A program made the position numbers and the translations under genes. From contig OZ242011.1 in NCBI GenBank assembly GCA_965204755.1, positions 1,760,001-1,824,000 of the forward strand: a DNA stretch of 64,000 nucleotides. The letters are read 5' to 3'. Below, piece by piece: positions 1 through 64,000 of this stretch. The stretch is from Candidatus Marinacidobacterium sp. Lineage in GTDB: Bacteria > Acidobacteriota > Vicinamibacteria > Marinacidobacterales > Marinacidobacteraceae. Under the pieces are notes generated by a model, which was not told the DNA's origin, searched no databases, and saw only the letters and a list, made by a program, of their open reading frames with translations. Every line of letters starts with the position of its first letter. The stretch's first letter is position 1.

Positions 1-307
1 CGGAGTCGGTCACCGCCCGCTCGTAGGCGAAGGCGAGCGCGTAGCCGGCCTCGCCGGCCTCCGCCAACTCCGACATCCGCAGCGGGCGGCCGGCGACTTC
101 CTGCGCGTAGGAGACGCCGAGCGAGAACTGGTTCATCCCGAAGCCGTCGCCGATGAGCAGGATCACATTCCGGGCCCGGGGGGTCGGCGGGGCGCCGGAC
201 GAGCAGCCGACGGACGCGGCCCCGAGCGCCGCCGCGACGATCGTCCCGGCCATCGCGCCGGGGGCGCGGCGGAGTCTCCCTCCGCCGACAGCAGTCTTCG
301 ATTGCAC
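1..307 (-). CDS. phoA: Alkaline phosphatase (PhoA family), lipoprotein; 5' part only, runs off window start
   Basis: Manual translation: MQSKTAVGGG...AASVGC (lipobox-like)...ARNVILLIGDGFGMNQ...AVTDS (first metal Asp and catalytic Ser motifs); GAGGAGG RBS before GTG at 307. Confidence 0.85.
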   Translation of the reverse strand, partial: MQSKTAVGGGRLRRAPGAMAGTIVAAALGAASVGCSSGAPPTPRARNVILLIGDGFGMNQFSLGVSYAQEVAGRPLRMSELAEAGEAGYALAFAYERAVTDS

Positions 308-515
308 CGTTGCAGTCCTCCTCGTTCGTGGCCTTGCCGCGCCGGGGGGCGCCGGGCGCGGGAAAGGCTACTTCCGGCCGGCGGCGCGCACCAAGACCCG
401 GGGGCGGCGCCGCTGCGGCGGCGGGGGGTCAACCGCCGGAGTCCGCGGTCCGGAGACCGCCCGCGGCGAGCGTCGGCCGGACCCCGCCGCAGGCGCGGCC
501 GCCCCGAGATCGGGG

Positions 516-2315
516 GTGTCGTTTCTTGACCACCCCTCCGGTCAAGATTCCAGCGTCAACACCGACCCCGCCTCCGCCGTTCCGACCTCCTCCCCGCTCC
601 CCGTCGTGCCCGCTCCCCCTGATCGTTCCCGGACGGGCGCCACCGGCGACCGGGGCCCGGACGGCCGCCCGCGCTCGGCATCCTCGCTGTCCGTTCGCCT
701 GACCGCGCGGTTCTACCGGGCGCCCCACGCTGCCGGAACGACCGCCACGGCGCTCCAGTCCGGCCTGCTCACCGCGGCCGCGGCCATCGTCCTCGATGCC
801 GGGCCGGCGGCCGCCGCCGACTGGCTCTGGTGGATCCCTGTCTTCGCCCTCGTCTCGGCGATCCTGATGGCGCCGCTGACAGCGCTCTGGTTCTCGTCGG
901 GCCTGCTCCTGACCGCCGTGTCCGCGCGGCGGGGCGAGGCGGGCCGGTCCGCCGCCGAGAGCCCGCCGTTCCGGCGACTCGCGGAACACGGGAAGGCCCG
1001 CGTCCGCGCTCTGACCGCCTTCTGGCGAAAGGCCTACCGGGTGGCGGCCGGCCCGCTCCTCTCGCTCGGCGCCGCTTTCCTCGCCATGCCGTTGCTCGAC
1101 GCTGCCGCGTGGCCGGGAACGCCGGAAGCGCACCCCTTCACCGAGTCCGCGCCGGCGCTCCTCGCGCTGCCGCTCTTCGGATGGCCGGCCCTCGCCGCGG
1201 CGGTGCTGCTCGTTGCGACGGTTCTCGACCGGTGCGCCGGCGCAGCCGACGGGCCCCTGCGCGGAACCCTCCTCGACCGGGCGCGGCGGCGCCTCCCCCT
1301 CCTTGCGTTCACCCCGGCGCTGCTGTTCCTCGCCGCATGGGTCCTCCGGGGAAGCCCGTGGCCCGACGGTTTCAGTGGCCGGGTCTCCTGGCTCGCGGTC
1401 GGCGCCGCCGCAGCGCCGTGGATCGCGCTCGCAGCGCTCCCGGCGCTCGGCGCGGCCCTGCTCCTCGGCTGGCTGCTCCTGGCGGCGGGCGACGGTCTGC
1501 TCCGCTTCGGGAAGCGCGCCGCGGGGCGGCGCGACGAAGGTTCCCGGCGAACGAGTGCGGCGCCGGGCAAACCCTTCCGGGCGTGGGCCGCTCCTTTCCT
1601 CGAAGGTGACCCGCACCTGCAGGCGACCCTCACCCTCGCCGCCTCCTGCCTGCTCGTCGCGTTGCTGGGCGCGACCTTCGACCTCTGGCCGTCGGACTAC
1701 GCGCACTGGTTCTGGGCGATCCCGTTCGCCGGGTTGCTGGCGGCGGGTGTCTGTTTCCCGTTGATGACGGCGACCGGGTGCGCCGTCGGGCTTCTCCTGA
1801 CCCTCGTGGACGCCGGGCGCGGCCTGGCGACGCGGCGCCCCGCGGATGAATCCCCGCCCTCCCGACCCCCTGCCCCGACGCGCGAACACTTCCGGCTGCT
1901 GCGCGCGGCGAGCCGGGCGCGGTCCCGCGCGACTCGCGAGTCGAGCGCCGCGATCGGCCTTTTCGGGGCAGCGCTGCTCGCCCTCGGCGGGACGACCAGT
2001 TTCGCGATCTTCTCCTTTCGGGCGGTGCGGACTTCCGACCCGGCCCTTTCCCCGGGGGGCGCCGTCGCGCTGACGGCCATCCTGCTCGTCGTCCTGTTCC
2101 TGCTCCTCGTCATGGCGTTCGTCGCGATGAAGACCGCCATGGATCTCATCGAGCGTCTCGGCCGCCGACCGGCGATGCCTCGAGAGCCCGCCGGCGCGCC
2201 GCGACGCAGCCCTGCCGATCGGGACTTCAGGTTCGACTGCGATCCGCGAAGAGATGCCAAACCCAACTGGGTTCCAGTCCTGGAACCGGACAAGACGCCC
2301 GAGATCAAGAGATGA
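516..2315 (+). CDS. Hypothetical multi-pass membrane protein with internal duplication; start uncertain
   Basis: Many hydrophobic segments in ORF 153..2315; the ORF's N-terminal part overlaps phoA so the start was moved to GTG 516; stop overlaps next ATG. Confidence 0.6.
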   Translation: MSFLDHPSGQDSSVNTDPASAVPTSSPLPVVPAPPDRSRTGATGDRGPDGRPRSASSLSVRLTARFYRAPHAAGTTATALQSGLLTAAAAIVLDAGPAAAADWLWWIPVFALVSAILMAPLTALWFSSGLLLTAVSARRGEAGRSAAESPPFRRLAEHGKARVRALTAFWRKAYRVAAGPLLSLGAAFLAMPLLDAAAWPGTPEAHPFTESAPALLALPLFGWPALAAAVLLVATVLDRCAGAADGPLRGTLLDRARRRLPLLAFTPALLFLAAWVLRGSPWPDGFSGRVSWLAVGAAAAPWIALAALPALGAALLLGWLLLAAGDGLLRFGKRAAGRRDEGSRRTSAAPGKPFRAWAAPFLEGDPHLQATLTLAASCLLVALLGATFDLWPSDYAHWFWAIPFAGLLAAGVCFPLMTATGCAVGLLLTLVDAGRGLATRRPADESPPSRPPAPTREHFRLLRAASRARSRATRESSAAIGLFGAALLALGGTTSFAIFSFRAVRTSDPALSPGGAVALTAILLVVLFLLLVMAFVAMKTAMDLIERLGRRPAMPREPAGAPRRSPADRDFRFDCDPRRDAKPNWVPVLEPDKTPEIKR

Positions 2316-4699
2316 CCGAGCGGAACCGCTACCGAGACACGCCGCTCCATTTTGCGGCGCGCAGCGAGCCGGATCCGGACAGACTCGAAGCGCTCCTCGC
2401 CGCCGGCGCGGAACTCGACGCCCGGAACTACAACGAAATGCGGACGCCACTCCATGAAGCGGTGGAGCACAACCCGAACCCGGAAGTCGCCAAAGCGCTG
2501 ATCAACGCCGGCGCCGATGTGGATGCGACAACGGGCGGGGAACGGGACTGGACGCCGCTCACGATCGCCGTGCACAAAGATCGCCGGGAACTCGTGGATG
2601 CGCTCTTGGAGGCCGGCGCTGATCTCGAAGCGCCGCGCTCGGAGACCCGGCCGCTGCATCTCGCTGCGCATCTGGACGATCCGTCCATGGCGTTGGCCCT
2701 CCTCGCGGCGGGGGCGGACCCGGAGGTGTCGGATGTGGACGAGGACACGAGACCGATCCATGACGCGGCGCGCGCCGGAAACGCCGCCATCCTCGAAGTG
2801 TTGCTGGAGGCCGGCGCGTCTCCCACGGCCATGGAGTCGGACGGGGATACGCCCTTGCTCCTGGCGGCCCAGTCGAATCGAACGCCGGAGGTGATCGAAC
2901 TCCTGACGGCGGCCGGCGCCGATCTCGAAGCCGGCTGGCCGGACACACCGCTTCTCCGGGCGGCGAGATGGAACCCGAATGTGGCCGTGGTCCAGAGGTT
3001 GATCGCGTTGGGCGCCGATGTCCACGCGCGGGATGAAGACGGCGCCGGCGTCCTTCACCGCGCCGTCGAACCGCTGACCGTATCCACCGCTTGCGGGCGA
3101 AAGTCGCCATCTCCGGAAGTCGTGGAAGCCTTGCTCGTGGCCGGCGCCGACCCCCACGCCAGAAATCATGAGGGGCGACTTCCGTCGGAACTGGTGGCCC
3201 CTGACTCGGAGATCTATCGCCGACTCCACCGAGCGGAACAGAAGCCCCAGGCGCCGTTCGCGCGGCGAAGACAGCGAGAGGTGGAGTTCTTCCATGCCGT
3301 GGGACATCAGAAGAATCCGGAGGTGATCCGGCGCCGGCTCGGGGCGGGGGTGGAGGCAGACGCCAGGAACCGGGAAGGGGAAACCGCGCTGCACATCGCG
3401 GCGAGGCGAAACCCGAACCCTGCCGTGCTCCGAGTCCTGCTCGACGCCGGGGCCGACATCGAAGTCCGCTCGGAACCGGAAGGAGACACGCCGTTGCACC
3501 GGGCGGTCTCAGGAAATGACAACCGCGAGGTGGCGGAATTCCTTCTCGGGAGCGGCGCCGACCCCAATGCGACGAACGACCGCGGGGAGACTCCGATGCA
3601 CCATCTCGCGTTCCGGTCGTTCCTGTCATCCCGGGCGGCGGAAGAACTGGTCGCCCCCCTGCTCGACGCCGGCGCCGACATCGATGCGCAGAACCCCGAA
3701 GGAGCGACGCCGCTGGGCTTGGCCGCGCGGTGGTCGGACGACCTGGCGGCGAAACTCCTCGCCGCCGGAGCGGATTCCCTTCGCCCGAGGGAGTTCTCCC
3801 TGCTGCACCGGGCAGCGCAGAGTGGGACTCGCCGCACGGTCGAGATGCTGCTGAACGCCGGCGTGCCCGTGGACATCGAGGCCGACGACGGCAGGACGCC
3901 GCTCGCTGTCGCCGCCGCAGACTGTACCGACTCCAAGATCGAGGTCGTCGAGGCGCTGTTGGCGGCCGGCGCCGGTGTCCACCGGCAGACGAAATCGGGG
4001 GAGACACCCCTGCACATTGCGGCTGCCCACCACGCCGTGCCGCCCGTGATCGAGATGCTGATCGCAGCCGGCGCGGACCTCGGAGCGCGAAATGACAAGG
4101 GGGAGACGCCGATGCACCTCGCCGCGACCGAGCCCGAGCACCCCGCGCTGCTCTCGGCGTTGATCGAAGCGGGCGCCGAGGTGGATGCTGTCGACGAGAG
4201 CGGGAGGACACCGCTCATGATTGCCGCGCGCCACCGATATGGACGCCCGTCCGTCGAGGCGCTGCTGGCCGCCGGGGCGGCAGTGGACATCCGGGACCTT
4301 CGGGGGAGGACGGCGCTGGGCGAAGCCGCTGAACGCAGTGCTGACTCGGAGATCCTGCGGGCGCTGCTGGCCGCCGGAGCGGATGCCGCGGCGTCGGACG
4401 AGCGCGGCCGGACGCCGCTCCACTGCGCGGCCAAGTCCAACGGGAACCCGGCTGTCGTCGGGGCCCTGCTGACCGCCGGCGCCGACCCGGCGGCGCGCAC
4501 CCCCGAACGGGACACGCCGCTGCATCTCGCGGCGGAATTCGGACGGGCGCCCGGCGTGGTCGCGATGCTGCTCCGCCACCACGCCGACCCAAACGCCCGT
4601 GACGGGCGAGGCCGGCGCCCTTACGACCTCGCCAAGCGGAACGAGAACCTATGTCGCACTCCGGTCCTCCGGCGCCTCCGACCGGAGACCCCGACCTGA
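2312..4699 (+). CDS. Ankyrin-repeat protein (~21 repeats)
   Basis: Repeated GxTPLHxAA...LLxAGAD units across 795 aa. Confidence 0.95.
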   Translation: MTERNRYRDTPLHFAARSEPDPDRLEALLAAGAELDARNYNEMRTPLHEAVEHNPNPEVAKALINAGADVDATTGGERDWTPLTIAVHKDRRELVDALLEAGADLEAPRSETRPLHLAAHLDDPSMALALLAAGADPEVSDVDEDTRPIHDAARAGNAAILEVLLEAGASPTAMESDGDTPLLLAAQSNRTPEVIELLTAAGADLEAGWPDTPLLRAARWNPNVAVVQRLIALGADVHARDEDGAGVLHRAVEPLTVSTACGRKSPSPEVVEALLVAGADPHARNHEGRLPSELVAPDSEIYRRLHRAEQKPQAPFARRRQREVEFFHAVGHQKNPEVIRRRLGAGVEADARNREGETALHIAARRNPNPAVLRVLLDAGADIEVRSEPEGDTPLHRAVSGNDNREVAEFLLGSGADPNATNDRGETPMHHLAFRSFLSSRAAEELVAPLLDAGADIDAQNPEGATPLGLAARWSDDLAAKLLAAGADSLRPREFSLLHRAAQSGTRRTVEMLLNAGVPVDIEADDGRTPLAVAAADCTDSKIEVVEALLAAGAGVHRQTKSGETPLHIAAAHHAVPPVIEMLIAAGADLGARNDKGETPMHLAATEPEHPALLSALIEAGAEVDAVDESGRTPLMIAARHRYGRPSVEALLAAGAAVDIRDLRGRTALGEAAERSADSEILRALLAAGADAAASDERGRTPLHCAAKSNGNPAVVGALLTAGADPAARTPERDTPLHLAAEFGRAPGVVAMLLRHHADPNARDGRGRRPYDLAKRNENLCRTPVLRRLRPETPT

Positions 4700-4747
4700 G
4701 AAAGCGAAGGGCTCCGGGAGGAACCCCGACCGGGCCGGCGGACGCCG

Positions 4748-5299
4748 TTACTGCGGCGGGCGGGTCAGCGCGGTGTAGTTCTCGCGGCAGAACCTCTCGA
4801 GTTCTTCCGCGAGGTGGTTGCCGGCGTTCCGCAGGCTCGTGCCGATCTCCCGCTGGTCGAGACCGGTGAGGGAGCGGGTCGTCTCGCCGATGGCGGCGAC
4901 GGCGTCCACGAAGTGGAATTCGACGATCTCGTGCCGCTCGGACAACACCATCCCCTGGCGCACGAGGACGCCGCCCTGCTTGGGTACGTACTCGGAAACC
5001 GTGCGGTAGTTCGTGACCCGCACGGTTACGGCCGCTTCTTCGCGGGTGGGAACCGCATGGAACCAGCGGCGGCGGCGGGAGATGCCCCGCTCCACCTCCT
5101 CCACCGCTTTCGCCAGCCGCGGGCGCAATTCGTCGTCCTCGGTCGGGACGGCGTCCACGAAGACCGGGAACGGGCGGGGCGGGCGGTCGGGAACCGACTG
5201 GGCGGGAGCGGACTGCGCGGCAGGCCCGGCCGCCGCGAGCGATGCGGCGAGCAGGAAGGCGCCGGCCGGAAGCCGAACGAGGGCGGGAAGGGCCTTCAT
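4748..5299 (-). CDS. Secreted hypothetical protein, paralog 3 of tandem triplet
   Basis: MKALPALVR... signal peptide; PVFV, RRRRWF and CRENY motifs; ATGA overlap with upstream paralog. Confidence 0.8.
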   Translation of the reverse strand: MKALPALVRLPAGAFLLAASLAAAGPAAQSAPAQSVPDRPPRPFPVFVDAVPTEDDELRPRLAKAVEEVERGISRRRRWFHAVPTREEAAVTVRVTNYRTVSEYVPKQGGVLVRQGMVLSERHEIVEFHFVDAVAAIGETTRSLTGLDQREIGTSLRNAGNHLAEELERFCRENYTALTRPPQ

Positions 5300-5844
5300 C
5301 GCTCGGCGGGCGGAGGCGAGTCCCCGGTCAACTCGTCGTAGTTCTCCCGGCAGAAATCCTCGAGTTCCTCGGCCAGGTTCTCGCTCGCGTTCCGGAGGCT
5401 GGAGCCGGTCTCCCGCTCGTCGAGCCCGGACAGGCCGCGCGTAACCGCGCCGATGCCGGCGACGGCATCCACATAGTGGAATTCCAGGATCTCGCTGCCC
5501 TCCACCATGACCACCCGGCCGTTGAGGATCTGCTTCCCGATCTTCGGGATCACTTCCGCGGCTGTCCGGTAGTTCGTGACCCGCAGGGTGGCCGCCGCCT
5601 CGTCCCGGGAGTCGACGACCCGGAACCAGCGGCGGCGGCGGGCGACGCGCTTCGCGACCTCGGAGACCGCCTTCGCCAGGAGTGGCCGGAGTTCGGGGTC
5701 GTCGGTCTCCAGCGCCTCCACGAAGACCGGAATCGGCGCCGGCGGCCGGTCGGGCGCCGACTGCGCGGCGGCGAACCCCGGGACGAGCGCGAGGCCCGCC
5801 AGGAGCGCCGCGCGGCGTCCGGGAGTCCTTCGCCGACGGTTCAT
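5296..5844 (-). CDS. Secreted hypothetical protein, paralog 2 of tandem triplet
   Basis: MNRRRRTPG...AAA|Q signal peptide; same motifs as neighbours. Confidence 0.8.
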   Translation of the reverse strand: MNRRRRTPGRRAALLAGLALVPGFAAAQSAPDRPPAPIPVFVEALETDDPELRPLLAKAVSEVAKRVARRRRWFRVVDSRDEAAATLRVTNYRTAAEVIPKIGKQILNGRVVMVEGSEILEFHYVDAVAGIGAVTRGLSGLDERETGSSLRNASENLAEELEDFCRENYDELTGDSPPPAER

Positions 5845-5858
5845 GGGGCCGCCCTCGC

Positions 5859-7855: not shown

Positions 7856-7880
7856 GTTCTCGGGAGCGCCCTCCGATCGG

Positions 7881-7954
<74 letters not shown>

Positions 7955-8030: not shown

Positions 8031-8107
8031 TGGTACGCCTGAGAGGACTCGAACCTCTGACTTCTTGCTCCGGAGGCAAGCGCTCTAATCCGCTGAGCTA
8101 CAGGCGC
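8031..8107 (-). tRNA. tRNA-Arg(CCG)
   Basis: GCGCCTGTAGCTCAGCGGATTAGAGCGCTTGCCTCCGGAGCAAG...GGTTCGAGTCC...GGCGTACCA. Confidence 0.95.
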
Positions 8108-15454: not shown

Positions 15455-16912
15455 ATGCTGCACCTCCCGAACCTCCCCGAATCCCGCCGCGGCGCGCTCA
15501 TCCCCCTCTTGGCGCTCGCCCTGCTCGGGGCGCCGGCGGCCGAAGCGCAGGACGCGAGCGACTACGGCAGCCGGGGCAACCTGGAGGCCAACGCCACCGA
15601 CGAGGAGCGCGAGGCGATGGAGACCCTCTACCGCCGCTTCGTCCCGTTCATCGACCGGGCGCGGACCGAGTTGACCATGGTGCGGGAGACGATCGCCTAC
15701 GCGGAAGCGCGCGGCTTCCGGGAGTGGGATCCGCAGATTCGCGAAGTGAACCCGGGAGACCGCTTCTACGCGGTGAACCGGGGCCGCACGATGGTGCTTT
15801 GGGTGGTCGGCAGCGAGCCGCTGTCGTCCGGGATGCGGCTGGTGAACAGCCACACCGATTCCATCCGGCTGGAGATGAAACCCCACGCGCTCACCCGGAA
15901 GACCGGCGCCGCCGCCTTCGACACCCTGGTCCACGGCGGCCTCAAGGCCTACCAGTGGGTGAATGTGCCGCTCGGGCTCACCGGCCGGGTGGACCGGAAG
16001 GACGGCTCCACCGTCTGGATCGAGTACGGCTTCGACGAGTCCGACCCGGTGCTGCTCATTCCGGACCTGGCGCCCCATGTGGATCGGGACTACCGCAGCC
16101 GGACGCGCGCCGACGCCATCGAACGCGAGGAGTTGGACCCGCTGGTGACTTCGGCGCCGACCGGCGGCGAGGACGGACTCGACCCGCTGGAGCGGGCGGC
16201 CGCGCTCATCCGGAGCGAGTTCGGCATCGAACCGGAGGACTGGGTGAGCAGCGATGTCCAGATCGTCCCGGTAACGAAGCCGCGCGAAGTGGGGCTGGAC
16301 CGGGCGCTCTTCGCCGCCTACGGTTTGGACGACCGCCTCACCGCGGTGGTCAACCTGTTCGCTCTCGAGGAGATGGAGACGCCGACCCATACCGGGATGG
16401 CGTACCTGGTCACCGACGAGGAGGTGGGGAACGGCTCGAACATCAGCGTCGGCTCCGAGTGGTTCCGCCGGATCGTGGCCGAGATGATCCGCGCCGAGAA
16501 GGGGACGGTGAGCGAACTGGATGTGATGGAGTGCTTTTCGGCGACGGACATGATCACCGCGGACACCACGACGGCGACGAACCCGCTCTGGCCGGCGCCG
16601 CAGGCGCCGGGCAACGCCTCGCTGCTCCACCACGGGCTGGTCATCAAGTTGTACGGCGCCGGGCGGAGCGCGAACAGCGAGTTCGTGGCGCATCTCCGCC
16701 GCCTGCTCGACGACGACCGGATCGCCTGGCAGAGCCACACCTACAAGGCCGGCTACGGCGGCGGCACGATCGCCCGCTATTTCAACCAGATGAACATGGA
16801 AGTCACCGACTGGGGAGTCGGCATCCTCTCGATGCACAGCACCTACGATGTGGCCTCGAAGGCCGACCTCTGGGCGCTCTACCGAGGCTTCCTGGCGTTC
16901 TTCCGGAGTTGA
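15455..16912 (+). CDS. M18 family aminopeptidase with signal peptide
   Basis: SHTDS, GLDDR, DEEVG, AD, GGTI, SMHS motifs; LLALALLGAPAAEA|Q. Confidence 0.88.
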   Translation: MLHLPNLPESRRGALIPLLALALLGAPAAEAQDASDYGSRGNLEANATDEEREAMETLYRRFVPFIDRARTELTMVRETIAYAEARGFREWDPQIREVNPGDRFYAVNRGRTMVLWVVGSEPLSSGMRLVNSHTDSIRLEMKPHALTRKTGAAAFDTLVHGGLKAYQWVNVPLGLTGRVDRKDGSTVWIEYGFDESDPVLLIPDLAPHVDRDYRSRTRADAIEREELDPLVTSAPTGGEDGLDPLERAAALIRSEFGIEPEDWVSSDVQIVPVTKPREVGLDRALFAAYGLDDRLTAVVNLFALEEMETPTHTGMAYLVTDEEVGNGSNISVGSEWFRRIVAEMIRAEKGTVSELDVMECFSATDMITADTTTATNPLWPAPQAPGNASLLHHGLVIKLYGAGRSANSEFVAHLRRLLDDDRIAWQSHTYKAGYGGGTIARYFNQMNMEVTDWGVGILSMHSTYDVASKADLWALYRGFLAFFRS

Positions 16913-19532: not shown

Positions 19533-19865
19533 ATGAGCCACTACTACGACGAAAACCACCTGCCCCGGTTCGGGGAGATCGGCGAGAACGCCCCCGAACT
19601 CTGGGAGAAGTTCCACGCCTGGTACCGCGCCACCTTCGCCGAGGGGGCGCTGACCGCCCGCGAGAAGGCGCTCATCGCTCTCGGCGTGGCGCACGCCGTC
19701 CAGTGCCCCTACTGCATCGACGCCTACTCCCAAGAGTGCCTCCAGCAGGGCTCGAACTTGGAGCAGATGACCGAAGCGGTCCATGTCTCCGCGGCGATCC
19801 GGGGCGGGGCCTCGCTGGTGCACGGGGTGCAGATGCGTGACCGGACGAAGCGGCTGAGCATGTGA
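19533..19865 (+). CDS. AhpD/CMD-family peroxidase-like protein (ArsS-associated type)
   Basis: EKALIALGVAHAVQCPYCIDAY, IRGGASLVHGVQM. Confidence 0.88.
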   Translation: MSHYYDENHLPRFGEIGENAPELWEKFHAWYRATFAEGALTAREKALIALGVAHAVQCPYCIDAYSQECLQQGSNLEQMTEAVHVSAAIRGGASLVHGVQMRDRTKRLSM

Positions 19866-20881
19866 GCCAAGTCCCGCTCCCGGTGTTCGAGGCCGGGGCC
19901 GCCGCCCGCCCGCCGGCGAACGGGTTTCCCGACTTCGACGACCGGCTGGCGGAGAGCGGGCTTCCCCCGCTTCGCGCCGAAGACATCGAAGTCTTCCAGA
20001 TCAATGTGGGGAAACTCTGCAACCAGACCTGCCGGCACTGCCATGTGGACGCCGGGCCCCACCGGGCCGCCGAGCAGATGACCCGCGAGACCGCCGAACT
20101 CTGCCTGCGGGCGCTGGCCCGGACCGGGGCGGGCACGGTGGACCTGACCGGCGGCGCCCCGGAACTCAACGCGAATTTCCGCTTCCTGGTGGAGGGCGCC
20201 CGGGAGATGGGCCGGCGGGTCATGGACCGCTGCAACCTGACCGTCCTGCTCCTGCCGTCGCAGGCGGGCCTCGCCGAGTACCTGGCGGAGCGGGAAGTCG
20301 AGATCGTGGCCAGCCTGCCCTACTTCCTCGCCGACCGGACCGACGCGCAGCGGGGCGACGGCGTCTTCGACCTCTCGATCCGCGCGCTCCGGCTGCTGAA
20401 CCGGCTCGGCTACGGGCAGGGCGGGCCGCTCGCGCTGAACCTCGTCTACAACCCGACGGGCGCGTTCCTGCCCGGCGACCAGGCGGCGCTGGAGCGGGAC
20501 TTCAAGCGGGAACTCGACCGGCGCTTCGGGATCCGGTTCGACCGGCTCTACGCCATGACGAACCTGCCGATCAGCCGCTTCCTCGACTACCTGCTCGAGA
20601 GCGGCAACTACCAGGGCTACATGACCCGGCTGGTGAACGCCTTCAACCCGGCCGCCGCTGCATCCGTGATGTGCCGGAACACGCTCTCGGTGGGTTGGGA
20701 CGGCCGGCTCTTCGACTGCGACTTCAACCAGATGCTGGACCTCGAGACCGGATTCGGCGCGCCCGCCCGCATCGCCGAGTTCGACCCCGAGGCGCTGTCC
20801 CGGCGGCGGATCGTCACCGGGGCGCACTGCTACGGCTGCACCGCCGGCGCCGGCTCGAGTTGCGGCGGCGCCACCGCGTGA
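19862..20881 (+). CDS. arsS: ArsS-family radical SAM protein (DUF3641 C-terminus)
   Basis: CNQTCRHC, DLTGGAPELN, DRCNLT, DCDFNQML, HCYGCTAGAGSSCGG. Confidence 0.88.
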   Translation: MSQVPLPVFEAGAAARPPANGFPDFDDRLAESGLPPLRAEDIEVFQINVGKLCNQTCRHCHVDAGPHRAAEQMTRETAELCLRALARTGAGTVDLTGGAPELNANFRFLVEGAREMGRRVMDRCNLTVLLLPSQAGLAEYLAEREVEIVASLPYFLADRTDAQRGDGVFDLSIRALRLLNRLGYGQGGPLALNLVYNPTGAFLPGDQAALERDFKRELDRRFGIRFDRLYAMTNLPISRFLDYLLESGNYQGYMTRLVNAFNPAAAASVMCRNTLSVGWDGRLFDCDFNQMLDLETGFGAPARIAEFDPEALSRRRIVTGAHCYGCTAGAGSSCGGATA

Positions 20882-24149: not shown

Positions 24150-24185
24150 TTCGATCACCGCGCGGTTACACGCCGCGGGCGGCGG

Positions 24186-24258
24186 GGTGGATGAGGGGAC
24201 TCGAACCCCCAACCGCCGGAACCACAATCCGGTGCTCTGCCATTGAGCTACATCCACC
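24186..24258 (-). tRNA. tRNA-His(GTG)
   Basis: G-1 GTGGATGTAGCTCAATGGCAGAGCACCGGATTGTGGTTCCGG...GGTTCGAGTCCCCTCATCCACC. Confidence 0.95.
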
Positions 24259-24298: not shown

Positions 24299-24375
24299 TG
24301 GCGCGCCAGGGAGGACTCGAACCCCCGACCCGCGGCTTAGAAGGCCGCTGCTCTGTCCAACTGAGCTACTGGCGC
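24299..24375 (-). tRNA. tRNA-Arg(TCT)
   Basis: GCGCCAGTAGCTCAGTTGGACAGAGCAGCGGCCTTCTAAGCCGC...TGGCGCGCCA. Confidence 0.95.
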
Positions 24376-39489: not shown

Positions 39490-42400
39490 TCAGCCCGCGA
39501 GGGCCGCGCCCACCGGCGTCTCTTCCGCCGTCTTCCGGGGCGGATCGTCGCCCGCCGACGGCGGCGGTTCTCCGGGGCTGCCGGCCACGAGCCGGTCGGC
39601 GATCTCCTCCACCCGGACGCGTTCGCCGCGCCCCAGGCGCTCCACGATCTCCTGGGTCAGCGCCGCCACCCGCTGCTCGCCGGCGGCGCTCCGGGCGCCG
39701 CCGCGGGCCGCGAACTCGGTGAGGAACTCGGGGGAGAGGAACGGGCCGATGCGCGCCGCCACCCGGCGCGACCGGAGGCTCACCGCCCCCGGCGGGAACG
39801 CGTTCCAGGTGTCGAGGTGCACCGGGAGGACCCCCACCCGGCAACGGAACGCCAGGTGCGCGAACCCCCGCCGGAACGGCTGGATCGCCCCGGTGCGCGA
39901 CCGGGTGCCCTCCGGGAAGACCAGCACGCTGTGCCCCTCGCGGAGGTAGCGGGCCGCCAAGTCGAGCGACCCCCGGAGCGAGCCGCGCCGCTCCATCGGC
40001 ACCAGGTTCGTGAAGTTGCCGAAGAAGGCGCGCTTCACCCGGTTGTCGAAGAAGTAGTCGGCGGCGGCGAGCGCGATCAGGTTCCCGCCGGCGTCGCCGA
40101 GCGCCATCTTCACGAGCCCCATGTCCAGGTGCGACGAGTGGTTCGCCACCACCAGGCAGTGGGTGTGGCGGGGGATGTGCGCCCGGCCGGTGAAGGTGGG
40201 GTCGAGCACCCGGTAGTAGAACCAGCGCTGCACCTCGGTGAGGCTCCGGCGCCCGGCCTTCGCCACCGCCGCCGGGATCTCGATCTCCTCCCGCTCCCGC
40301 TCCGGCGCCCGGCTCGCGCGCTTCGCGGCGGCGGGCCGACCGGAACGGCGGGCCGTCCGCAGCGCCCCGGCCAGGTCGCCGACGGTCGCGAAGTTGGCGA
40401 GCGACTCGGGCGCCGCCGCTTCGCCGAATTCGCTCTCCAGCGCCGCCGAGAGTTCGTTGTACATCAGGCTGTCGAAGCCGAGTTCGGCGAAGGAGGACGC
40501 CGGCCGCACCTCCGCGGCCGGCCGCTCGCAGATCCCCGCCACGAGTTCCAGCAGGCGGTCCTGCGAGGCCCCCTCCTCCTCCGAGGTCTCCGCTGCCTTC
40601 CGGCGGCGGCCCTCCAGCCACTTCAGGAGTTCGCCCCGCTTCACCTTGCGGGTGGTCGTCCGGGGCAGCGCCTCGTCCCGGAACTCGACGGTCTTGATGC
40701 GCTTGAACAGCGGCAGCCCCGCGGACACCTCGCGCAGGTGGGCCTCGACTCTCGCCCGGCCGGCGTCGGTGCGCTCCTTCGGCACCACGACCGCGGCGAC
40801 CTGTTCCGCCGCGCCGTCGGGCAGCCCCACCACCGCCATCTCCGCGATGAGCGACTCCTCGGCGTAGGTCTCCTCCACTTCCTCGGGGTAGATGTTGCGG
40901 CCGCCCCGGTCCACGATGACTTCCTTCCGCCGCCCCACCAGGAACAGGTTCCCGTCGGCGTCCAGCCGGCCGAGGTCGCCGGTGTGGAGCCAGCCGTCCA
41001 CGAGCGTCTCGGCCGTCGCCTGTTCGTTGCCGTAGTAACCGGCCATCACATTCGGCCCCCGGGCGACGACTTCCCCCACGCCGGCGGCGTCCGGCTCGGC
41101 GATCCGGATCTCGATGCCGGTCAGCGCCCGCCCGACGCTGCCCGCCGGCGTCCGTTCGCCGGGGCGGGTGACCGTGAGCACCGGCGCCGCCTCGGTCAGC
41201 CCGTACCCCTGCGCCAAGTGGAATCCCAGGCCGCTGAAGGTCTTCCAGGTCGCCTCGGAGAGCGCCGAGGCGCCGCTGATCAGGTAGCGGAGCCGGCCGC
41301 CGAGGGCGGCGTGCACCGGGAAGAAGACCGCCGGACCCAGGTTCACCCCGGTGTCTTCGCGCAGCAGGTGCGCCGCGTCGAGCAGCGCGGTGACCAGGTC
41401 CTCGACCCGCTTTCCCCGCTCGGCGAAGGGCGCGATGATCCGCCGCTTCAGCAGGTCCCACAGCGCCGGGACGCCGACGATGCAGGTGATGCGCCCCTTG
41501 CCCAGTTCGCGGTTGATCGCTTCCGGGCTGATCTCGTCGAGGTAGGTGATTTCCGCTCCCCGCGACAGCGGCAGCAGGAAACCGGTGGTGAATTCGAAGG
41601 AATGGTGCAGCGGGAGGATGCTGAGCGCGCCGTCGCTCGAGCCGATGTCGTAGATGGACACCAGTTTGGCGACCAGACTGGTGAAGTTGCGGTGGGACAG
41701 CATCACGCCCTTCGGGGTTCCGGTCGTTCCCGAGGTGAACAGGATGGACGCCAGGGAACTCGGCGCCCCCGGCCCGGGAAGCGCCGCCGCCGCTTCCGCC
41801 TCCGCTTCGGCGTCCCCGATCTCGAACACTTCGGCGAACGAGCGGATCTCGAACGGGGGCGCTCCGCGACCCTCGCCGAGTTTCTTCCCGGCGGTCCGGA
41901 AGAGGGCATCGCTCAGGAGCAGCGCCTTCGCGTCACCGAGGCGGAGGACGCGGAGGATCTCCTTCGGCCGCAGGTCGCGGTCGAGCGGAATCGCCGTCGC
42001 CCCGATCCGCTGGACGGCGAAGTACGCCATGCCCCATTCCGGGGAGTTCTCGCCGATCAGGCCGATATGGTCGCCGGCGCCGTAGCCGAGTTTCGCGAGG
42101 AACACCGCGCCTCGCTCCACGCATTCGCGCAACTCCGCGTAGGTGTACCGCTCTTCGCGGCCGTTCCGGGTGATGCGCATGGCCACCCGGCCGGCATGGT
42201 TCTTGGTGCAGGCCTCGAACAGTTCGCCGAGCGTGCGGTAGGCGTACGCCTTCCGGGTCCGGGCCCGCTGCCGGGCTTGGTCCTCGAGGGCCGGGAAGAC
42301 GAACCGCTCGAGCCCGGGCAGGTGGACATGGAGCCAGTAGTGGTACCAGTCCAAGTCTTCCGGACGGAAGAAGAGTTTGTCCTCGTTCCCGTCCAGCCGG

Positions 42401-44007
42401 GAGAACAGGTCGCGGGTGTTGTCGGCGCGGAAGACGAACCGCTCCCCGGCGATGAACGGTTTGAAGGTATGGAATTGCCGCTCGCTCTCTTCCACGAAGT
42501 CGGAGAAGACTTCGGTCTTGCCGCGCAGCGATTCCGCCATCGCGGCCAGCGGCCCGAGCGGTTGCTCCCGGACGCTGTCGAGCGCGTCCGCGAGGCCGGA
42601 GGCCGACTTCTTCATCCAGTGGAGCGCGTACTTCTCGAAGTGCTCGGCGGAGATGACATGCGTCTCCATCCGCCCGAGCGCTTCGTTCCAGAGTTTCAGC
42701 CCGGTCGGCTTCTTCTGGAAGTGCCGCCGCTTGAACAGGCCGACCAGGTCCACCACGCGCCCCACCCGCACCGGGTTCCGGTCCCCGCCGGCGACCTGGT
42801 ACACCAAGTTCGGTTCGGTCACCAGCGTCTCGGCGGCCACGGCCAGCGTCGCCGAAGCCACCATGTCCACCGGCACCACATCCAGGATCAGGTCCGGATC
42901 GATGGGAAACAGGTTCTGGCCGCGAAGCGCCATCCGCACCAGCGGGGCGCTGGTGGTGAAGCCCTCGTTCCATCCCTCCACCGGGAACGAGACCGCGCTC
43001 TCCACGATCGCCGGACGGACGATCGCGCGGGCGATGCCTTCGGCTTCCGCCACCAGTTGGTCGCCGAGGCTCTTGGTATAGGTATAGATGTTGGGCCATC
43101 CCCAGCCGGCGGCCTTCTCCATGCCGAGGTCGCGGAGCCGGGTGCGGATCCAGTCCTTCCTCTCCCGGGCGATGGCGAGCGAGAGCGACCGGTCGTCGTC
43201 GGGGTCGCGCCCCTCTTCCACGAAGCGGCGGCGGGCCGCTTCCCGGAACGCGTCCACCCGCGACTTGTCTTCCGCTTCGTCGCGCACCCGTTCGGCCAGC
43301 CGCTCGCAGTCCTCGATCTCGCGCGCCACCCGGAACTCCTGGTCGTCCCGGTCGCGGCGCGGGAAGTACCCGATGAGCGGTTCGTCCTCGCGGATCTCCC
43401 CGGCGCGGTTCCCGGCGACGAAACAGGTGCTGGTATGGACGACGGCCGGCCGCTTCATCCGCCGGGCGAACGCCAGGATGTTCCGCGTGCCGTGCACATT
43501 GGTGGAGATCGAGGCTTCGAGCGGCGGGTTGAAGGAGACGCGCCCGGAGCAGTTCAGGATGAGGTCGATGTCCGCCGCGATCTCGCGTGCCCTTTCTTCG
43601 GGGTATCCGAGGTTCTCCCGGGTGATGTCCCCGCCGAGCACGGTGATCTTCTCCTCCACGAATTCCCGGAGGCCGCCGCCCCGGCGTTTCCTCAGCACTT
43701 CGAACGCCGGGGAGTTCTGCAGGATGTCCTCGAACCGGGTCCGGCTCTCGGATTCCTTCGGCGCCCGCACCATGAGGTAGATGCGGCGGACCTGCGGAAA
43801 GAACTCGAGCAGCATTCCCAGGCAGACCTTGCCGAGGAACCCGGTCCCGCCGAGCAGCAGGACGGCTTTGCCGGCGAACGCTTCGTCCACCGGGATCCGC
43901 GGCCGGCCGCGCTCCGCCGGCGCGGGCGGCCGCCGCTCCCGGTCCTCCTCCTTCCCGGCCCGGCGGCTCGGCGCGGCCGCCCCGCGTTTCGACGAGCCGC
44001 CGCTCAT
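39490..44007 (-). CDS. elbD: ElbD-like multidomain enzyme: fatty acyl reductase - adenylation - carrier protein - acyltransferase
   Basis: GGTGFLGK and YTYTK (FAR); FTSGTTGTPKG, GYGLTE, TGDLG (A); LGFDSL (T); NHSSHLD, FPEGTRS (PlsC). Confidence 0.88.
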   Translation of the reverse strand: MSGGSSKRGAAAPSRRAGKEEDRERRPPAPAERGRPRIPVDEAFAGKAVLLLGGTGFLGKVCLGMLLEFFPQVRRIYLMVRAPKESESRTRFEDILQNSPAFEVLRKRRGGGLREFVEEKITVLGGDITRENLGYPEERAREIAADIDLILNCSGRVSFNPPLEASISTNVHGTRNILAFARRMKRPAVVHTSTCFVAGNRAGEIREDEPLIGYFPRRDRDDQEFRVAREIEDCERLAERVRDEAEDKSRVDAFREAARRRFVEEGRDPDDDRSLSLAIARERKDWIRTRLRDLGMEKAAGWGWPNIYTYTKSLGDQLVAEAEGIARAIVRPAIVESAVSFPVEGWNEGFTTSAPLVRMALRGQNLFPIDPDLILDVVPVDMVASATLAVAAETLVTEPNLVYQVAGGDRNPVRVGRVVDLVGLFKRRHFQKKPTGLKLWNEALGRMETHVISAEHFEKYALHWMKKSASGLADALDSVREQPLGPLAAMAESLRGKTEVFSDFVEESERQFHTFKPFIAGERFVFRADNTRDLFSRLDGNEDKLFFRPEDLDWYHYWLHVHLPGLERFVFPALEDQARQRARTRKAYAYRTLGELFEACTKNHAGRVAMRITRNGREERYTYAELRECVERGAVFLAKLGYGAGDHIGLIGENSPEWGMAYFAVQRIGATAIPLDRDLRPKEILRVLRLGDAKALLLSDALFRTAGKKLGEGRGAPPFEIRSFAEVFEIGDAEAEAEAAAALPGPGAPSSLASILFTSGTTGTPKGVMLSHRNFTSLVAKLVSIYDIGSSDGALSILPLHHSFEFTTGFLLPLSRGAEITYLDEISPEAINRELGKGRITCIVGVPALWDLLKRRIIAPFAERGKRVEDLVTALLDAAHLLREDTGVNLGPAVFFPVHAALGGRLRYLISGASALSEATWKTFSGLGFHLAQGYGLTEAAPVLTVTRPGERTPAGSVGRALTGIEIRIAEPDAAGVGEVVARGPNVMAGYYGNEQATAETLVDGWLHTGDLGRLDADGNLFLVGRRKEVIVDRGGRNIYPEEVEETYAEESLIAEMAVVGLPDGAAEQVAAVVVPKERTDAGRARVEAHLREVSAGLPLFKRIKTVEFRDEALPRTTTRKVKRGELLKWLEGRRRKAAETSEEEGASQDRLLELVAGICERPAAEVRPASSFAELGFDSLMYNELSAALESEFGEAAAPESLANFATVGDLAGALRTARRSGRPAAAKRASRAPEREREEIEIPAAVAKAGRRSLTEVQRWFYYRVLDPTFTGRAHIPRHTHCLVVANHSSHLDMGLVKMALGDAGGNLIALAAADYFFDNRVKRAFFGNFTNLVPMERRGSLRGSLDLAARYLREGHSVLVFPEGTRSRTGAIQPFRRGFAHLAFRCRVGVLPVHLDTWNAFPPGAVSLRSRRVAARIGPFLSPEFLTEFAARGGARSAAGEQRVAALTQEIVERLGRGERVRVEEIADRLVAGSPGEPPPSAGDDPPRKTAEETPVGAALAG

Positions 44008-54913: not shown

Positions 54914-54937
54914 AGGAACGGGTTCCGCCGATCCACC

Positions 54938-59048: not shown

Positions 59049-59115
59049 CCGCCGCCCGGAGAAAGGTTACCGCCGATCCGCCGCGGTCGGCGGCCGCCGT
59101 CGGGCCGCAGGGCGA

Positions 59116-59131
59116 TGTTTCACGCGAAACA
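59116..59131. promoter_or_regulatory. parS site (one mismatch)
   Basis: TGTTTCACGCGAAACA vs consensus TGTTTCACGTGAAACA, just upstream of parA. Confidence 0.85.
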
Positions 59132-59139
59132 TCGGCGGC

Positions 59140-59850
59140 CTACCCACCGGACGGGCCTCTTCGGGTCCGCCCCGACCAGACGATGCCGTGGTCGGTCGCC
59201 CGCTCGGTCTCCTCGAACAGGCCGTCGGGGAGGTCGGAACGCCCGCGCGCCGCCCGGCTCGTCGGCCAGACCACCACCGCGGTCGGCGACAGGCAGCGGG
59301 CGAGGCCGCGCCACTCCGCCTCGTTCAGCCGCACCGCCCGCAGCGTCACCGCGGAGACGGCGCCGAGCACCGACGGCGCTTCGTCCTGCTTCAAGTACTC
59401 CTCGAACCGGCCGCGATGGATTCGGACCCGCGAGGCCAGCCCCATGGTCTCGACCGCTTCCCGCAGGAACTCGCACGGCATCCGGCGCGCCTCCACCAGC
59501 ACCCAGTCCCCGGTCTCCACCGCCGCGGCGAGCGGCAACGCCGGCGTCCCGCCCCCGCTGCCGAGGTCGAGGTAGGGCCCGGCCGCCGGCAGGACGGCCC
59601 TCAAGTCCAACGCCTCCCGGAAGAACCGCTCCGCCAGCGCCTCCGGCGACCGAAACCCCGTGACGCCCAAGTGCGCCCTCGCCCGGAGCAGCCGGAACAA
59701 CCGGTCGAGCCGACCCTGCGCGGCCGGACCGAGCGGTGGATCGAGCCCCTCGAGGGCCGCCGCCAGCGCCTCCGAAACCGACTCGCCCGAAGGGAGCGGC
59801 TCCTCCGCCCCGGCCGCCCGGCCGGTCGGAGACCCGTCCTCCGGGTTCAG
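59140..59850 (-). CDS. rsmG: 16S rRNA m7G527 methyltransferase RsmG; start uncertain (CTG?)
   Basis: LDLGSGGGTPALPLA, LVE, LRAV; synteny before parA. Confidence 0.8.
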   Translation of the reverse strand: MNPEDGSPTGRAAGAEEPLPSGESVSEALAAALEGLDPPLGPAAQGRLDRLFRLLRARAHLGVTGFRSPEALAERFFREALDLRAVLPAAGPYLDLGSGGGTPALPLAAAVETGDWVLVEARRMPCEFLREAVETMGLASRVRIHRGRFEEYLKQDEAPSVLGAVSAVTLRAVRLNEAEWRGLARCLSPTAVVVWPTSRAARGRSDLPDGLFEETERATDHGIVWSGRTRRGPSGG

Positions 59851-61658: not shown

Positions 61659-61673
61659 GACCGACCTCCCCGA

Positions 61674-61982
61674 CTAGCGCCGCGCCGCGGCGACCGCGGG
61701 CGCCGCCGGATCGCCGACGGTCTCCGGAACCGGGTCGTACCCGGAACCCCCGAACGGCCGGCACCGGGCGAGCCGCCGCGCGCCCAGCCACACCCCCCGT
61801 CCGGGCCCGTGCCGCCGGATCGCCTCCGCCGCGTACCGGGAGCACGAGGGCGTGAACCGGCAGGCGCCGGAGAACAGAAGCGGCCCCAAGGTCACCTGGT
61901 AGATCCGGATGAGGCCGAGGAGCGCCCCGGCGGCGAGCGCCGGCGGCGACAGACGAGTCCTCACGAGTTGGCTCGCCTTCAC
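61674..61982 (-). CDS. yidD: Membrane protein insertion efficiency factor YidD
   Basis: [26 protein letters not shown]. Confidence 0.92.
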
Positions 61983-62509
61983 GGACGGCTCGAACTCGGC
62001 CGGCGCGCGGCCCGCGAACCGCCGGCCCGCGAACTGCCGGCCCGCGCAACCGCCCGGCGAACCGCCGCGCGGCAGGAGCGGACTACCTCGGCCCACGGCG
62101 CTTCGGCAAGGCCCCGGCGAGCCACCAGGACCAGGTCGCCGACCGGGCGCTCGGGGCTCCGGCGGTAGATCTCCCGCAGCCGGCGCTTCGCCCGGTTCCG
62201 CGCGACCGCCGACCCCACCCGCCGGCTGGCGACCACGCCGAGCCGCGAGCGGCGCCGGGCCGAGCCGGCGTCGGCCTCTCGCCGGGCGCCTCCCCCGGCA
62301 TCTCCCAAAAACGCCACCACCAGGTCACCGGCGCCGCGGCCGCCCCGGTCCATCACCCTCCGGAACTCCGGGGAGCGGCGAACCCGCTCCGACCTCGAAA
62401 GCCCCTGGGGAAGCCCCTCGGAAGACCTCTCGCTCCGGCGTTCGGCCGGCCGGCCTCCCGGCCCGCCGACCGGCGATGCGGCGGGACTCGACCCGGACGC
62501 CACCGGCAA
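61979..62509 (-). CDS. rnpA: RNase P protein component; start uncertain
   Basis: [25 protein letters not shown]. Confidence 0.9.
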
Positions 62510-62590
62510 GCGCTCGCAGCGAAGGGAAGCGGTTCCGGAACGGAACGGATCGCGGTAGGGAAAGGCGGGACGGAGAGGGGGCGCCCGCGC

Positions 62591-62725
62591 TCAGGCGGAG
62601 AGGCGCCGCCGCCCCCTCCGCCGGCGCCGCGCCAGGATCCGACGCCCGCCCGGAGTGCTCATGCGCGCCCGGAAACCATGCTTCCGCTTCCGCCGCCGAC
62701 GATTGGGCTGAAAGGTTCTCTTCAC
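62591..62725 (-). CDS. rpmH: 50S ribosomal protein L34
   Basis: Manual translation [44 protein letters not shown]. Confidence 0.97.
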
Positions 62726-62808
62726 GGACTTCGCGACTCCAAACCGTTGAAAAAACGGAGATTAGAAAGACAAATCGCCGAAACGACAGCGCTACCGCGC
62801 AGCCGGAT

Positions 62809-62838
62809 AGGGTACTGCCCCCCCTAGTTTCATGTCAA
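62809..62838 (-). promoter_or_regulatory. Putative rpmH promoter
   Basis: TTGACA-N18-TACCCT on the minus strand. Confidence 0.55.
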
Positions 62839-63041
62839 GCCTCCGCAACTCCGCGCCGGAGGCCGAAAGAGCCCTCCTTACCGTTCTTGGACTTCCGACC
62901 CGCCCATTCGCGGGGGGCGTTCGGATAGCGGGAGGGGCCGAAACAGATTCCCCGGACGAGCAGGGAGGGGCCCCGAGCGGGGGTTCGCGGACGGCCCGGA
63001 GACAGGAACGACCGATGGAACTAGGGCAGGGAAAACGACCC

Positions 63042-63069
63042 TTGACTCGGTATCCGACCCTGCTAGTTT
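63042..63069 (+). promoter_or_regulatory. Putative dnaA promoter
   Basis: TTGACT-N16-TAGTTT with extended TGn. Confidence 0.5.
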
Positions 63070-63290
63070 CCGCCGCTCGCTCGCAGCGGGGCGGCCCCGG
63101 ACACCCCCCTTCGAGCCCCTTGGACGGCGGGTTCGAGCCGCCCCGAACTTCGGCGCCGGAACCGGATTTTCGGCGCTTCGAACCCGCCCGAGTCCCGTCT
63201 TCAGCCCCTCCTCGGTCGGCGCCGGACGCCGCCCGGCCTCGGCCGCCAGGCCGACGCCCCGACCGGCGTTCTCCGCTTCCCCACCTTGCC

Positions 63291-64000
63291 TTGACCCTAC
63301 GCCACAAGACTTCCGACCCGGCGGTCCGCGACTGCTGGAACGCGGCGATCTCCCGCATCCGCGAGACCCTCCCCGCCCGCGAATACCGAACCTGGTTCGC
63401 CCCGACCCGGTTCCTCGGCTCGGACGACGGCGCGATCCGCATCCTGGTGCCGAACCGCACCTTCGTGGCCAAGTTGGAGAACGGCTACGGCGCCCTTCTC
63501 CGGGAGACCCTCTCGCAGTGCGGAGCGCCCTCGACCGCGATCCGCTTCCGCATCTCCGGGACGCCGGTCCTCGCCACCTCCGACGCCGCCGGCGCGGAGC
63601 CCCAAGCCCACCCCATCACCCCGGAACACACCGACTCGATCCTCCGGGAGCCCGGCCCCGGCCTGATCGGGAACGGCCGGCTGGCCGAGAACCAGACCTT
63701 CGAGAGTTTCGTCGTCGGGGAGAGCAACCGCTTCGCCTTCGACGCCGCCCGTTCCGTCAGCAACCCCGGCATCGAGTACTCCCCCTACAACCCGCTGGTG
63801 ATCTACGGGCAGACCGGACTCGGCAAGACCCACCTGCTGAACGCGATCCGCCTCCGCGTCCGCGAACACAGCCCGGAACTCCGGGTCCTGGCCCTGAAGG
63901 GCGAGGCCTTCACCCGGCAGGTGGTGAGCGCCGCGCTGAGCAGCCGCCTCTTCGAACTCCGCGAGTGGTACAGCGGAGTGGATGTGTTCCTGGTGGACGA
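63291..64000 (+). CDS. dnaA: Chromosomal replication initiator DnaA (5' part, runs off window)
   Basis: YRTWF, VPN, TFESFVVGESNRFA, YNPLVIYGQTGLGKTHLLNAI. Confidence 0.95.
   Translation, partial: MTLRHKTSDPAVRDCWNAAISRIRETLPAREYRTWFAPTRFLGSDDGAIRILVPNRTFVAKLENGYGALLRETLSQCGAPSTAIRFRISGTPVLATSDAAGAEPQAHPITPEHTDSILREPGPGLIGNGRLAENQTFESFVVGESNRFAFDAARSVSNPGIEYSPYNPLVIYGQTGLGKTHLLNAIRLRVREHSPELRVLALKGEAFTRQVVSAALSSRLFELREWYSGVDVFLVD

Follow-up and report, generated by a model that had tools for sequence, protein, structure and literature searches.

Genome-wide depletion of the palindromes ACGT and AGCT in a Candidatus Marinacidobacterium chromosome

On the usual view a cell is safe from its own restriction enzymes because it methylates their sites, so that strong avoidance of such sites is expected in viruses and only mild avoidance in hosts. 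Restriction-site avoidance in prokaryotes and viruses has reportedly been described by Gelfand and Koonin in 1997, by Rocha and colleagues in 2001 and by Rusinov and colleagues in 2018. We analyzed a stretch of 64,000 nucleotides (the window) from the genome of a sponge-associated acidobacterium, Candidatus Marinacidobacterium (GenBank assembly GCA_965204755.1, contig OZ242011.1) in which the tetranucleotide palindromes ACGT and AGCT are nearly absent. The genome, G000 below, is a single contig of 3,975,858 bp of which the window is bases 1760001–1824000, and the same purge runs through all of it. Like classical avoidance, it concerns 4-bp palindromes of the Type IIP kind, proceeds by synonymous removal and is lineage-specific; a typed resident system of the HgiDII/BbrUII family, enzymes with GTCGAC as their site, also accompanies a 5-fold depletion of that word. 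Unlike classical avoidance in cells, the observed/expected ratios (O/E) of 0.007–0.045 over 4 Mb are at the level of virulent phages, no cognate enzyme pair was found in G000, and the likely sites of other resident systems are untouched. The purge is best read as an extreme, unusually strong new example of known restriction-site avoidance.

The available text of a study of Helicobacter pylori (PMC10423294) gives 53–295 ACGT per Mb, depending on lineage, together with the m5C methylase M.Hpy99XI. G000 shares with that case the word itself, a similar density (∼67 per Mb), a lineage-dependent degree of loss and silent escapes of the NAT-GTN type in codon frame 2. Turnover in H. pylori is, however, dominated by ATGT and ACAT and is attributed there to deamination (same text), whereas G000 has mostly non-deamination replacements, is purged in frame 3 too and has lost AGCT equally. 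Clade-A pandoraviruses have eliminated AGCT, and the agent was not found according to the available text of Poirot et al. (bioRxiv 10.1101/712018). As far as that text goes, the likeness to G000 lies in a near-complete loss of AGCT from a GC-rich genome of megabase size, in non-directed replacements and in restriction to a clade; the pandoraviruses are, however, amoeba viruses with no methylase or site protection, whereas G000, a bacterium, encodes about 30 DNA methylases, is purged of two words and keeps surviving sites in its rRNA and tRNA genes.

Loss of ACGT and AGCT in the window and the chromosome

Against a second-order Markov expectation, the window (positions 1..64000, 72% G+C) contains one ACGT where 90.3 are expected (O/E 0.011) and four AGCT where 133.9 are expected (O/E 0.030). 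Among the other tetramers CTAG is the rarest relative to expectation (11 of 52 expected, 0.21). An earlier note on this DNA, a partial scan by eye, had described a purge of both words, and the counts make it stronger than was noted. The other palindromes it had listed as present are so (observed/expected GATC 417/435, TCGA 452/382, GTAC 103/146, CATG 134/165 and TGCA 73/65). It had found no ACGT; there is one, at 4986..4989 within a called gene (4748–5158, minus strand), and the window is otherwise free of the word. Its statement that AGCT occurs only in the TAGCTCA D-arm of four tRNAs is exact. All four genes lie on the minus strand, and in each the word begins at tRNA position 9: tRNA-Lys(CTT) at 7879..7954 (AGCT at 7943–7946, tRNA positions 9–12), tRNA-Arg(CCG) at 8031..8107 (8096–8099), tRNA-His(GTG) at 24184..24257 (24246–24249) and tRNA-Arg(TCT) at 24299..24375 (24364–24367).

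The loss is visible in the choice of codons. Within the called genes of the window, NAY-GTN pairs are written with NAT 91 times and with NAC once, against 649 NAC and 37 NAT before a G not followed by T; xAR-CTN pairs read xAA-CTN 122 times and xAG-CTN never, against 35 xAG and 3 xAA before TTG. The individual pairs that had been picked out by eye all lie in frame, namely AAT-GTG (20003–20008), CAT-GTG (20042–20047) and GAA-CTC (20162–20167) in the called gene at 19862..20881 (plus strand), and GAG-TTG (15668–15673), an escape from GAG-CTN, in the called gene at 15455..16912 (plus strand).

Across the whole genome, ACGT occurs 265 times against 7146 expected (0.037) and AGCT 332 times against 7446 (0.045). 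We called 2773 genes (3.42 Mb) with a home-made codon-score open reading frame picker, a set that is not curated, and shuffled synonymous codons within each gene ten times. The earlier note had proposed such a codon-preserving count as a check, and it leaves the depletion in place: coding DNA holds 128 ACGT against 6260 in the shuffles (standard deviation 39, O/E 0.020) and 100 AGCT against 7813 (standard deviation 33, O/E 0.013), and both words are depleted in all three codon frames. Equal depletion of all A-N-N-T words through codon-pair bias, named there as the competing outcome, was not seen; AACT, AGTT and ATGT are raised 1.7–2.5 fold in coding DNA (1.71, 1.93 and 2.55, respectively), and AAGT stands at 1.30. 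Genome-wide, NAC-GTN accounts for 31 of 3877 NAY-GTN pairs, against 95–99% NAC before a G not followed by T, and xAG-CTN for 24 of 4866 xAR-CTN pairs. In 1974 core genes, ACG makes up 14 of 4057 Thr codons before T against 28–57% elsewhere, and AGC 8 of 5156 Ser codons before T against 23–30% elsewhere. Two short palindromes of the kind cut by Type IIP enzymes thus lie far below codon-preserving expectation, as restriction-site avoidance would predict.

Nearly all of the chromosome takes part. Both words are absent from 1079 of 1589 five-kb windows, and only ten such windows reach half of expectation, being those of the rRNA operon and of five of nine AGCT-bearing repeat-array loci treated further below. 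The ratios are 0.010 and 0.007 in 1677 native genes, 0.14–0.15 in uncalled and intergenic DNA, and 0.12–0.14 in the 43 genes that are most atypical (GC 0.61), which is a 7–9-fold depletion. Accessory genes, which had been thought to follow the same rule, are therefore depleted as supposed but more weakly than native ones. Of the ∼600 surviving sites, 61 fall in rRNA and tRNA genes together: about 28 within the single rRNA operon (G000:2266234–2271854), and 33 in tRNA genes (27 AGCT, 19 of them in the D-arm TAGCTCA, and 6 ACGT).

Relatives and the agent of the purge

Relatives were sampled as 20-kb stretches around one ortholog, together with remote samples, in a family set of 28 genomes (G439 was unsampled, and two others were reached only via contigs too short to score). 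The marker ortholog is that of a gene for a 1505-aa multidomain protein (AMP-binding, NAD_binding_4, PP-binding and acyltransferase) at 39490..44007 on the minus strand of the window. The second member of the genus, G001, carries both purges (ACGT 8/129 and AGCT 14/141, over four loci). G005, from another genus of the family, is purged of ACGT only (12/75, with AGCT at 180/219), and so is G007, a 410-contig assembly from a third genus (25/107, with AGCT at 197/205). No palindromic tetramer other than CTAG had an O/E below 0.25 in the samples from 21 other family, 5 same-order and 19 same-class genomes. At the 49 positions of the marker gene with ACGT in unpurged relatives, none is kept in G000, G001, G005 or G007; at the 38 positions with AGCT, G000 and G001 keep none, G005 five and G007 eight. 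The purge is lineage-specific. G000 and G001 agree at 428 of 717 four-fold sites, where chance gives 0.476, so that silent sites are close to saturation; since both genus members are nonetheless purged, the purge is maintained and not a fossil.

As an observation apart, the orthologs of this 1505-aa gene read through one or two in-frame TGA codons in each of the seven genomes sampled from one sister genus, as well as in G007 (G002, G007, G008, G011, G014, G016, G017 and G018), and in none of G000, G001 or the other genera. Recoding, shared frameshifts or errors are possible causes.

The reading we judge to be probably correct is one of ongoing selection against the bare 4-bp words, with long-acting pressure from restriction-type endonucleases on AGCT (AluI-type) and ACGT (MaeII/HpyCH4IV-type) as its likeliest agent. 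Each site would carry a fitness cost big enough to override codon preference; the cost could come, for example, from occasional cutting of unmethylated sites or from cutting of incoming or recombining DNA, and a cognate methylase would shield the ∼600 surviving sites, many of which would be unchangeable in rRNA and tRNA genes. The data also bear the signature of a filter at entry, because even the 43 most atypical genes stand at 0.12–0.14 and, outside the rRNA operon and the arrays, every 5-kb window stays below half of expectation. A restriction enzyme without a methylase was judged unlikely, since ∼600 sites survive, 61 within genes for rRNA or tRNA. A search for a rule in the flanking bases of the surviving sites gave no strict one. 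The earlier note had proposed restriction or modification systems of AluI-like and HpyCH4IV/MaeII-like specificity as the origin: a targeted, lineage-specific and maintained removal of two palindromes agrees with this, while no typed enzyme is AluI-like or HpyCH4IV/MaeII-like.

In the restriction-modification (R-M) inventory of G000, C5 methylases occupy six loci, and 25 N6_N4 matches exceed the family cut-off. Among the partner enzymes are an EcoRII-like one (G000:1049811), a NotI-like one (G000:1861991, a language-model look-alike only), a SmaI-like one (G000:491434) in an R-M locus that is intact in G000 (490643–492183), and a BbrUII/HgiDII-family enzyme (G000:2394120; NCBIfam NF050001, E 1e-104) beside a C5 methylase (locus 2393071–2396051), with a Type IV enzyme (GmrSD) and a further methylase as neighbors. 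The other systems are several of Type III, GmrSD and one Vsr. GTCGAC, which we take to be the site cut by HgiDII and BbrUII, is depleted about 5-fold genome-wide (416/2076), as is GTAGAC (113/612).

Two single candidates for ACGT were tried and set aside. The orphan N6_N4 methylase at G000:2357032 occurs in unpurged relatives too, being found in 17 of the 28 genomes of the family. The SmaI-like system (490643–492183) is intact in G000, was not found in G001 and is decayed in the ACGT-purged G005, where the small N4/N6 methylase is split in two frames and the last 53 residues of the enzyme are left; SmaI-type enzymes with ACGT as their target are not known.

By elimination, two C5 methylases shared within the genus remain, and their distribution in the family likewise makes the cassettes that contain them candidates. 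Cassette A (G000:1259155–1263768) encodes a C5 methylase (1262788–1263768), PDC-M33A, PDC-M33B and PDC-M33C/DUF6339; cassette B (G000:1516353–1521071) encodes proteins of 545 and 112 aa, one resembling DUF6339 and a C5 methylase (1519737–1521071). We tentatively assign the AGCT purge to cassette A and the ACGT purge to cassette B, an assignment that we consider more likely wrong than right. Within the family, cassette A is found only in the AGCT-purged G000 and G001, where it is syntenic, apart from one 30%-identical match in G013. Cassette B is found in exactly the four genomes purged of ACGT, in G001 as a very divergent version in the corresponding chromosomal slot, and a search of the remaining 24 of 28 did not find it; its presence in G007 led us to expect loss of ACGT there before the counts showed it (25/107).

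Cassette A is a member of PDC-M33, a candidate defence system of PADLOC-DB v2, in that its M33A (E 5e-93), M33B (2.5e-40) and M33C/DUF6339 (1e-22) proteins, encoded beside the C5 methylase, all match the PADLOC profiles. The matches of cassette B are weak (M33A 4e-6; DUF6339 6e-4, below cut-off), and by its sequence it is a putative relative of PDC-M33 rather than a member. Methylase A is as large as M.HhaI and M.HaeIII, enzymes with 4-bp targets, and can be aligned with them over its full length; for methylase B the closest matches are DNMT1 catalytic domains. The genes flanking the B slot are 75–84% identical between G000 and G001 and the cassette contents 24–42%, a contrast that marks it as an apparent hypervariable defence slot. 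For M33A there was no Pfam hit, and a sequence profile run against the PDB gave only insignificant low-complexity matches. Its AlphaFold model (pLDDT 73, pTM 0.63) matches TRAP1/Hsp90 and Topo VI-B in Foldseek (probability 1.0, E 4e-8) with a TM-score of only ∼0.3, and M33A is on this structural ground predicted to be an Hsp90/Topo VI-B-like protein (GHKL ATPase, Bergerat fold). We fetched 80 cassette-A loci, 68 with a near-full-length methylase match; the four-gene order is conserved in those fetched from many phyla, mostly from marine or sponge-type metagenome-assembled genomes (MAGs). Pooled k-mers of 79 host loci gave no clear common target motif for cassette A (lowest CTCGAG 0.62 and CTAG 0.63), and identity of A-type methylases by sequence window showed no pattern with the AGCT purge of the host. 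Outside the family, carrying a B-type methylase does not mark a genome as purged of ACGT. It is conceivable, and in our view doubtful, that PDC-M33-type cassettes are ATP-dependent restriction systems with 4-bp targets (AGCT for A, ACGT for the family-specific B), whose imperfect self-protection would drive any lineage that kept one for long to a ∼100-fold loss of the target, much as in phages. A literature search, with supplementary files outside its reach, found no paper on PDC-M33, DUF6339 or Marinacidobacterium.

Several observations count against restriction pressure as the agent, or against the cassettes as its source. No AGCT- or ACGT-specific enzyme was identified among those restriction enzymes of G000 that could be typed. 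The likely sites of other resident systems are not depleted (CCWGG 0.94, CGGCCG 0.85 and GCGGCCGC 1.04); GTCGAC is. Restriction is thus able to remove sites from this genome, but the presence of a system is not enough for it, and carriage of an R-M system alone is no explanation for a 25–140-fold purge. The purges of the relatives are not independent, these being kin, and the quick single-gene tree that leaves the three ACGT-purged lineages ungrouped (SH-aLRT 80–89) has an unresolved backbone and separates them with weak support. The proposed link of PDC-M33 to the purge is contradicted by most hosts outside the family: the AGCT O/E exceeds 0.25 in 58 of the 68 hosts that carry cassette A in other phyla, and lies near 1 in most. 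B-type hosts outside the family are likewise unpurged (G411 with 71/65 and 59/52, also G379 and G179); none of 33 B-type metagenome contigs of at least 8 kb is purged, and ACGT pooled over 55 contigs of at least 4 kb stands at 1675/1768. The B-slot methylase of G001 is only 20–33% identical to that of G000 in the variable region, the G000 DUF6339 gene (M33C) has an in-frame TGA where G001, whose gene is intact, has Arg, and a single C5 methylase is present in each of two multi-purged MAGs.

Alternative explanations

The purge might instead arise at the level of gene transfer, if 4-cutters circulating in a sponge community, none of them fixed in G000, let site-free alleles survive and spread. 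We regard this as unlikely, though the likeliest of the alternatives. It would agree with the 7–9-fold depletion already present in atypical, unameliorated genes, and with the lack of a cognate enzyme found in G000. The window is matched by contigs of 16 sponge and marine metagenome runs from five studies, with strain-level differences (764 differing places). Ten of 78 cassette-A MAGs, from several phyla, are purged of one to six palindromic tetramers (AGCT and GATC in five each, ACGT and GGCC in four each), against none of 19 same-class genomes; the 78, mostly marine or sponge-type by title, were chosen for carrying cassette A, so that 10 of 78 is no habitat rate. Against transfer filtering, co-sampled taxa differ in their purges, and of the 24 family genomes (of 28) without cassette B, which need not share the sponge habitat, the 21 sampled are all unpurged.

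Mutational decay, in which AG5mCT and A5mCGT (5mC, 5-methylcytosine) deaminate to AGTT/AACT and ATGT/ACAT with no selection on the words, is in our estimate very unlikely. Known 5mC hotspot factors are far smaller than 1000-fold, and the odds of NAC to NAT are shifted more than 1000-fold before GTN relative to other contexts, too large a shift for deamination. Decay also predicts loss in silent frames only. In frame 3, where the deamination products are non-synonymous, sites are depleted 5–20 fold: CGT follows xxA in 13 of 2916 cases against 2.3–2.7% after xxC or xxG, and GCT follows xxA in 5 of 4646 against 1.8–2.5% after other bases. Nor do C-to-T products dominate. Thr before T is written ACC-T in 80% of cases and ACA-T, which is not enriched, in 36 of 4057 (0.9%); at the 49 orthologous ACGT positions of G000 the commonest replacement is ACCT (11), with ATGT and ACAT together at 8, and at the 38 orthologous AGCT positions 13 carry deamination-type words. 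Escapes of the deamination type are used where they alone are silent, as in NAT-GTN and AGT-T (1236 of 5156), and other silent escapes are taken where possible (ACC-T rather than ACA-T). The earlier note's remark that ATGT/ACAT and AGTT/AACT may simply be the synonymous escapes is borne out in this respect. In favor of decay, no words are more over-represented than ATGT, AACT and AGTT, and AGT-T does replace AGC-T; G000 has six C5 methylases and only one Vsr gene was found. The available text of PMC10423294 adds that M.Hpy99XI (ACGT) is an m5C enzyme, that ACGT turnover in H. pylori yields mainly deamination products, and that hpEastAsia strains have ∼53 ACGT per Mb, a density like the ∼67 of G000. 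Frame-3 depletion, non-deamination replacements and the shift in odds together argue for selection against the words themselves over 5mC deamination, and selection is the interpretation we favor.

A constraint with no nuclease behind it would have AGCT reserved for a DNA-binding protein, or would act through a structural or transcriptional effect of the palindromes; we give this little credence. It draws on about 75 of the 332 surviving AGCT, which sit between genes in nine double arrays, each built from a ∼20-bp repeat. The repeat unit consists of the core GAATTGTGTATAGCT (a conserved 15-mer with 75 exact copies) and five variable bases, and each locus has two sub-arrays of the same orientation, 150–290 bp apart and AT-rich within a 72% GC genome. 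The double arrays look like protein-binding iteron arrays, a putative assignment. The nine loci all lie outside the window (G000:357894, 756031, 1207950, 1659954, 2045499, 2895446, 2970771, 3119129 and 3494175). The loss of AGCT in pandoraviruses is also one with no nuclease explanation in the available text of bioRxiv 10.1101/712018. However, a 15-bp binding site needs no genome-wide purge of a tetramer, and the array unit has no ACGT; the targets are Type II-like palindromes whose compositional twins TCGA, GATC, TGCA and CATG are normal, and survivors obey no strict flanking rule. Separately, AATT is over-represented in the window (30 against 9 expected) and in the genome (1450 against 813); the arrays account for only part of this excess, and the window contains none.

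An assembly or base-calling artefact at methylated motifs is practically excluded: single-contig MAGs are often built from long reads, whose consensus can go systematically wrong at methylated motifs, but the replacements are nearly all synonymous and chemically diverse (NAT-GTN, ACC-T, GAA-CTN and GAG-TTG), the 410-contig G007 and three other genomes carry the same purge, and contigs of independent runs contain 50–100% of the 31-mers of the window.

Purges in other genomes and their meaning

Purges of several words also occur outside the family. Unrelated small MAGs (L097, L102, L103, L104, L105 and L128; G440–G444 and one more) have near-totally lost two to six palindromic tetramers each; they are labelled as Gammaproteobacteria, Thermodesulfobacteriota, Poriferihabitaceae and Alphaproteobacteria. 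L128, for example, has ACGT at 0/23, AGCT at 0/24, TCGA at 2/56 and GGCC at 6/141. A TaqI-family enzyme is present in two of three TCGA-purged MAGs and in neither of two unpurged ones, and a search for the DpnII family in GATC-purged MAGs gave one weak partial match only. For sponge symbionts, a literature search that left supplementary files aside found neither a description of palindrome purges nor one of methylation motifs. The window itself encodes, at 2312–4699 (plus strand), an ankyrin-repeat protein of 795 aa that consists almost wholly of repeats (Pfam Ank_2, E 3e-121). Ankyrin-repeat proteins are a hallmark of sponge symbionts, in agreement with the sponge metagenome runs that match the window.

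What the finding adds is a 4-Mb bacterial chromosome with a virus-like loss of two words that overrides a codon preference of ∼97:3. It gives a lead on a widespread, uncharacterised cassette of methylase, putative GHKL and DUF6339 genes, and suggests that several sponge-type symbiont genomes of other phyla carry similar multi-word purges, undescribed in the literature searched. The graded purge over three lineages of one family is a natural series from which the cost per site and the speed of genome rewriting can be read. If PDC-M33-type cassettes did prove to be restriction systems of the kind outlined above, the three ACGT-purged lineages would be three time-points of one process (O/E 0.23, 0.16 and 0.04–0.06), and other 4-cutters would have driven the same process in the unrelated sponge-type MAGs with multi-word purges.

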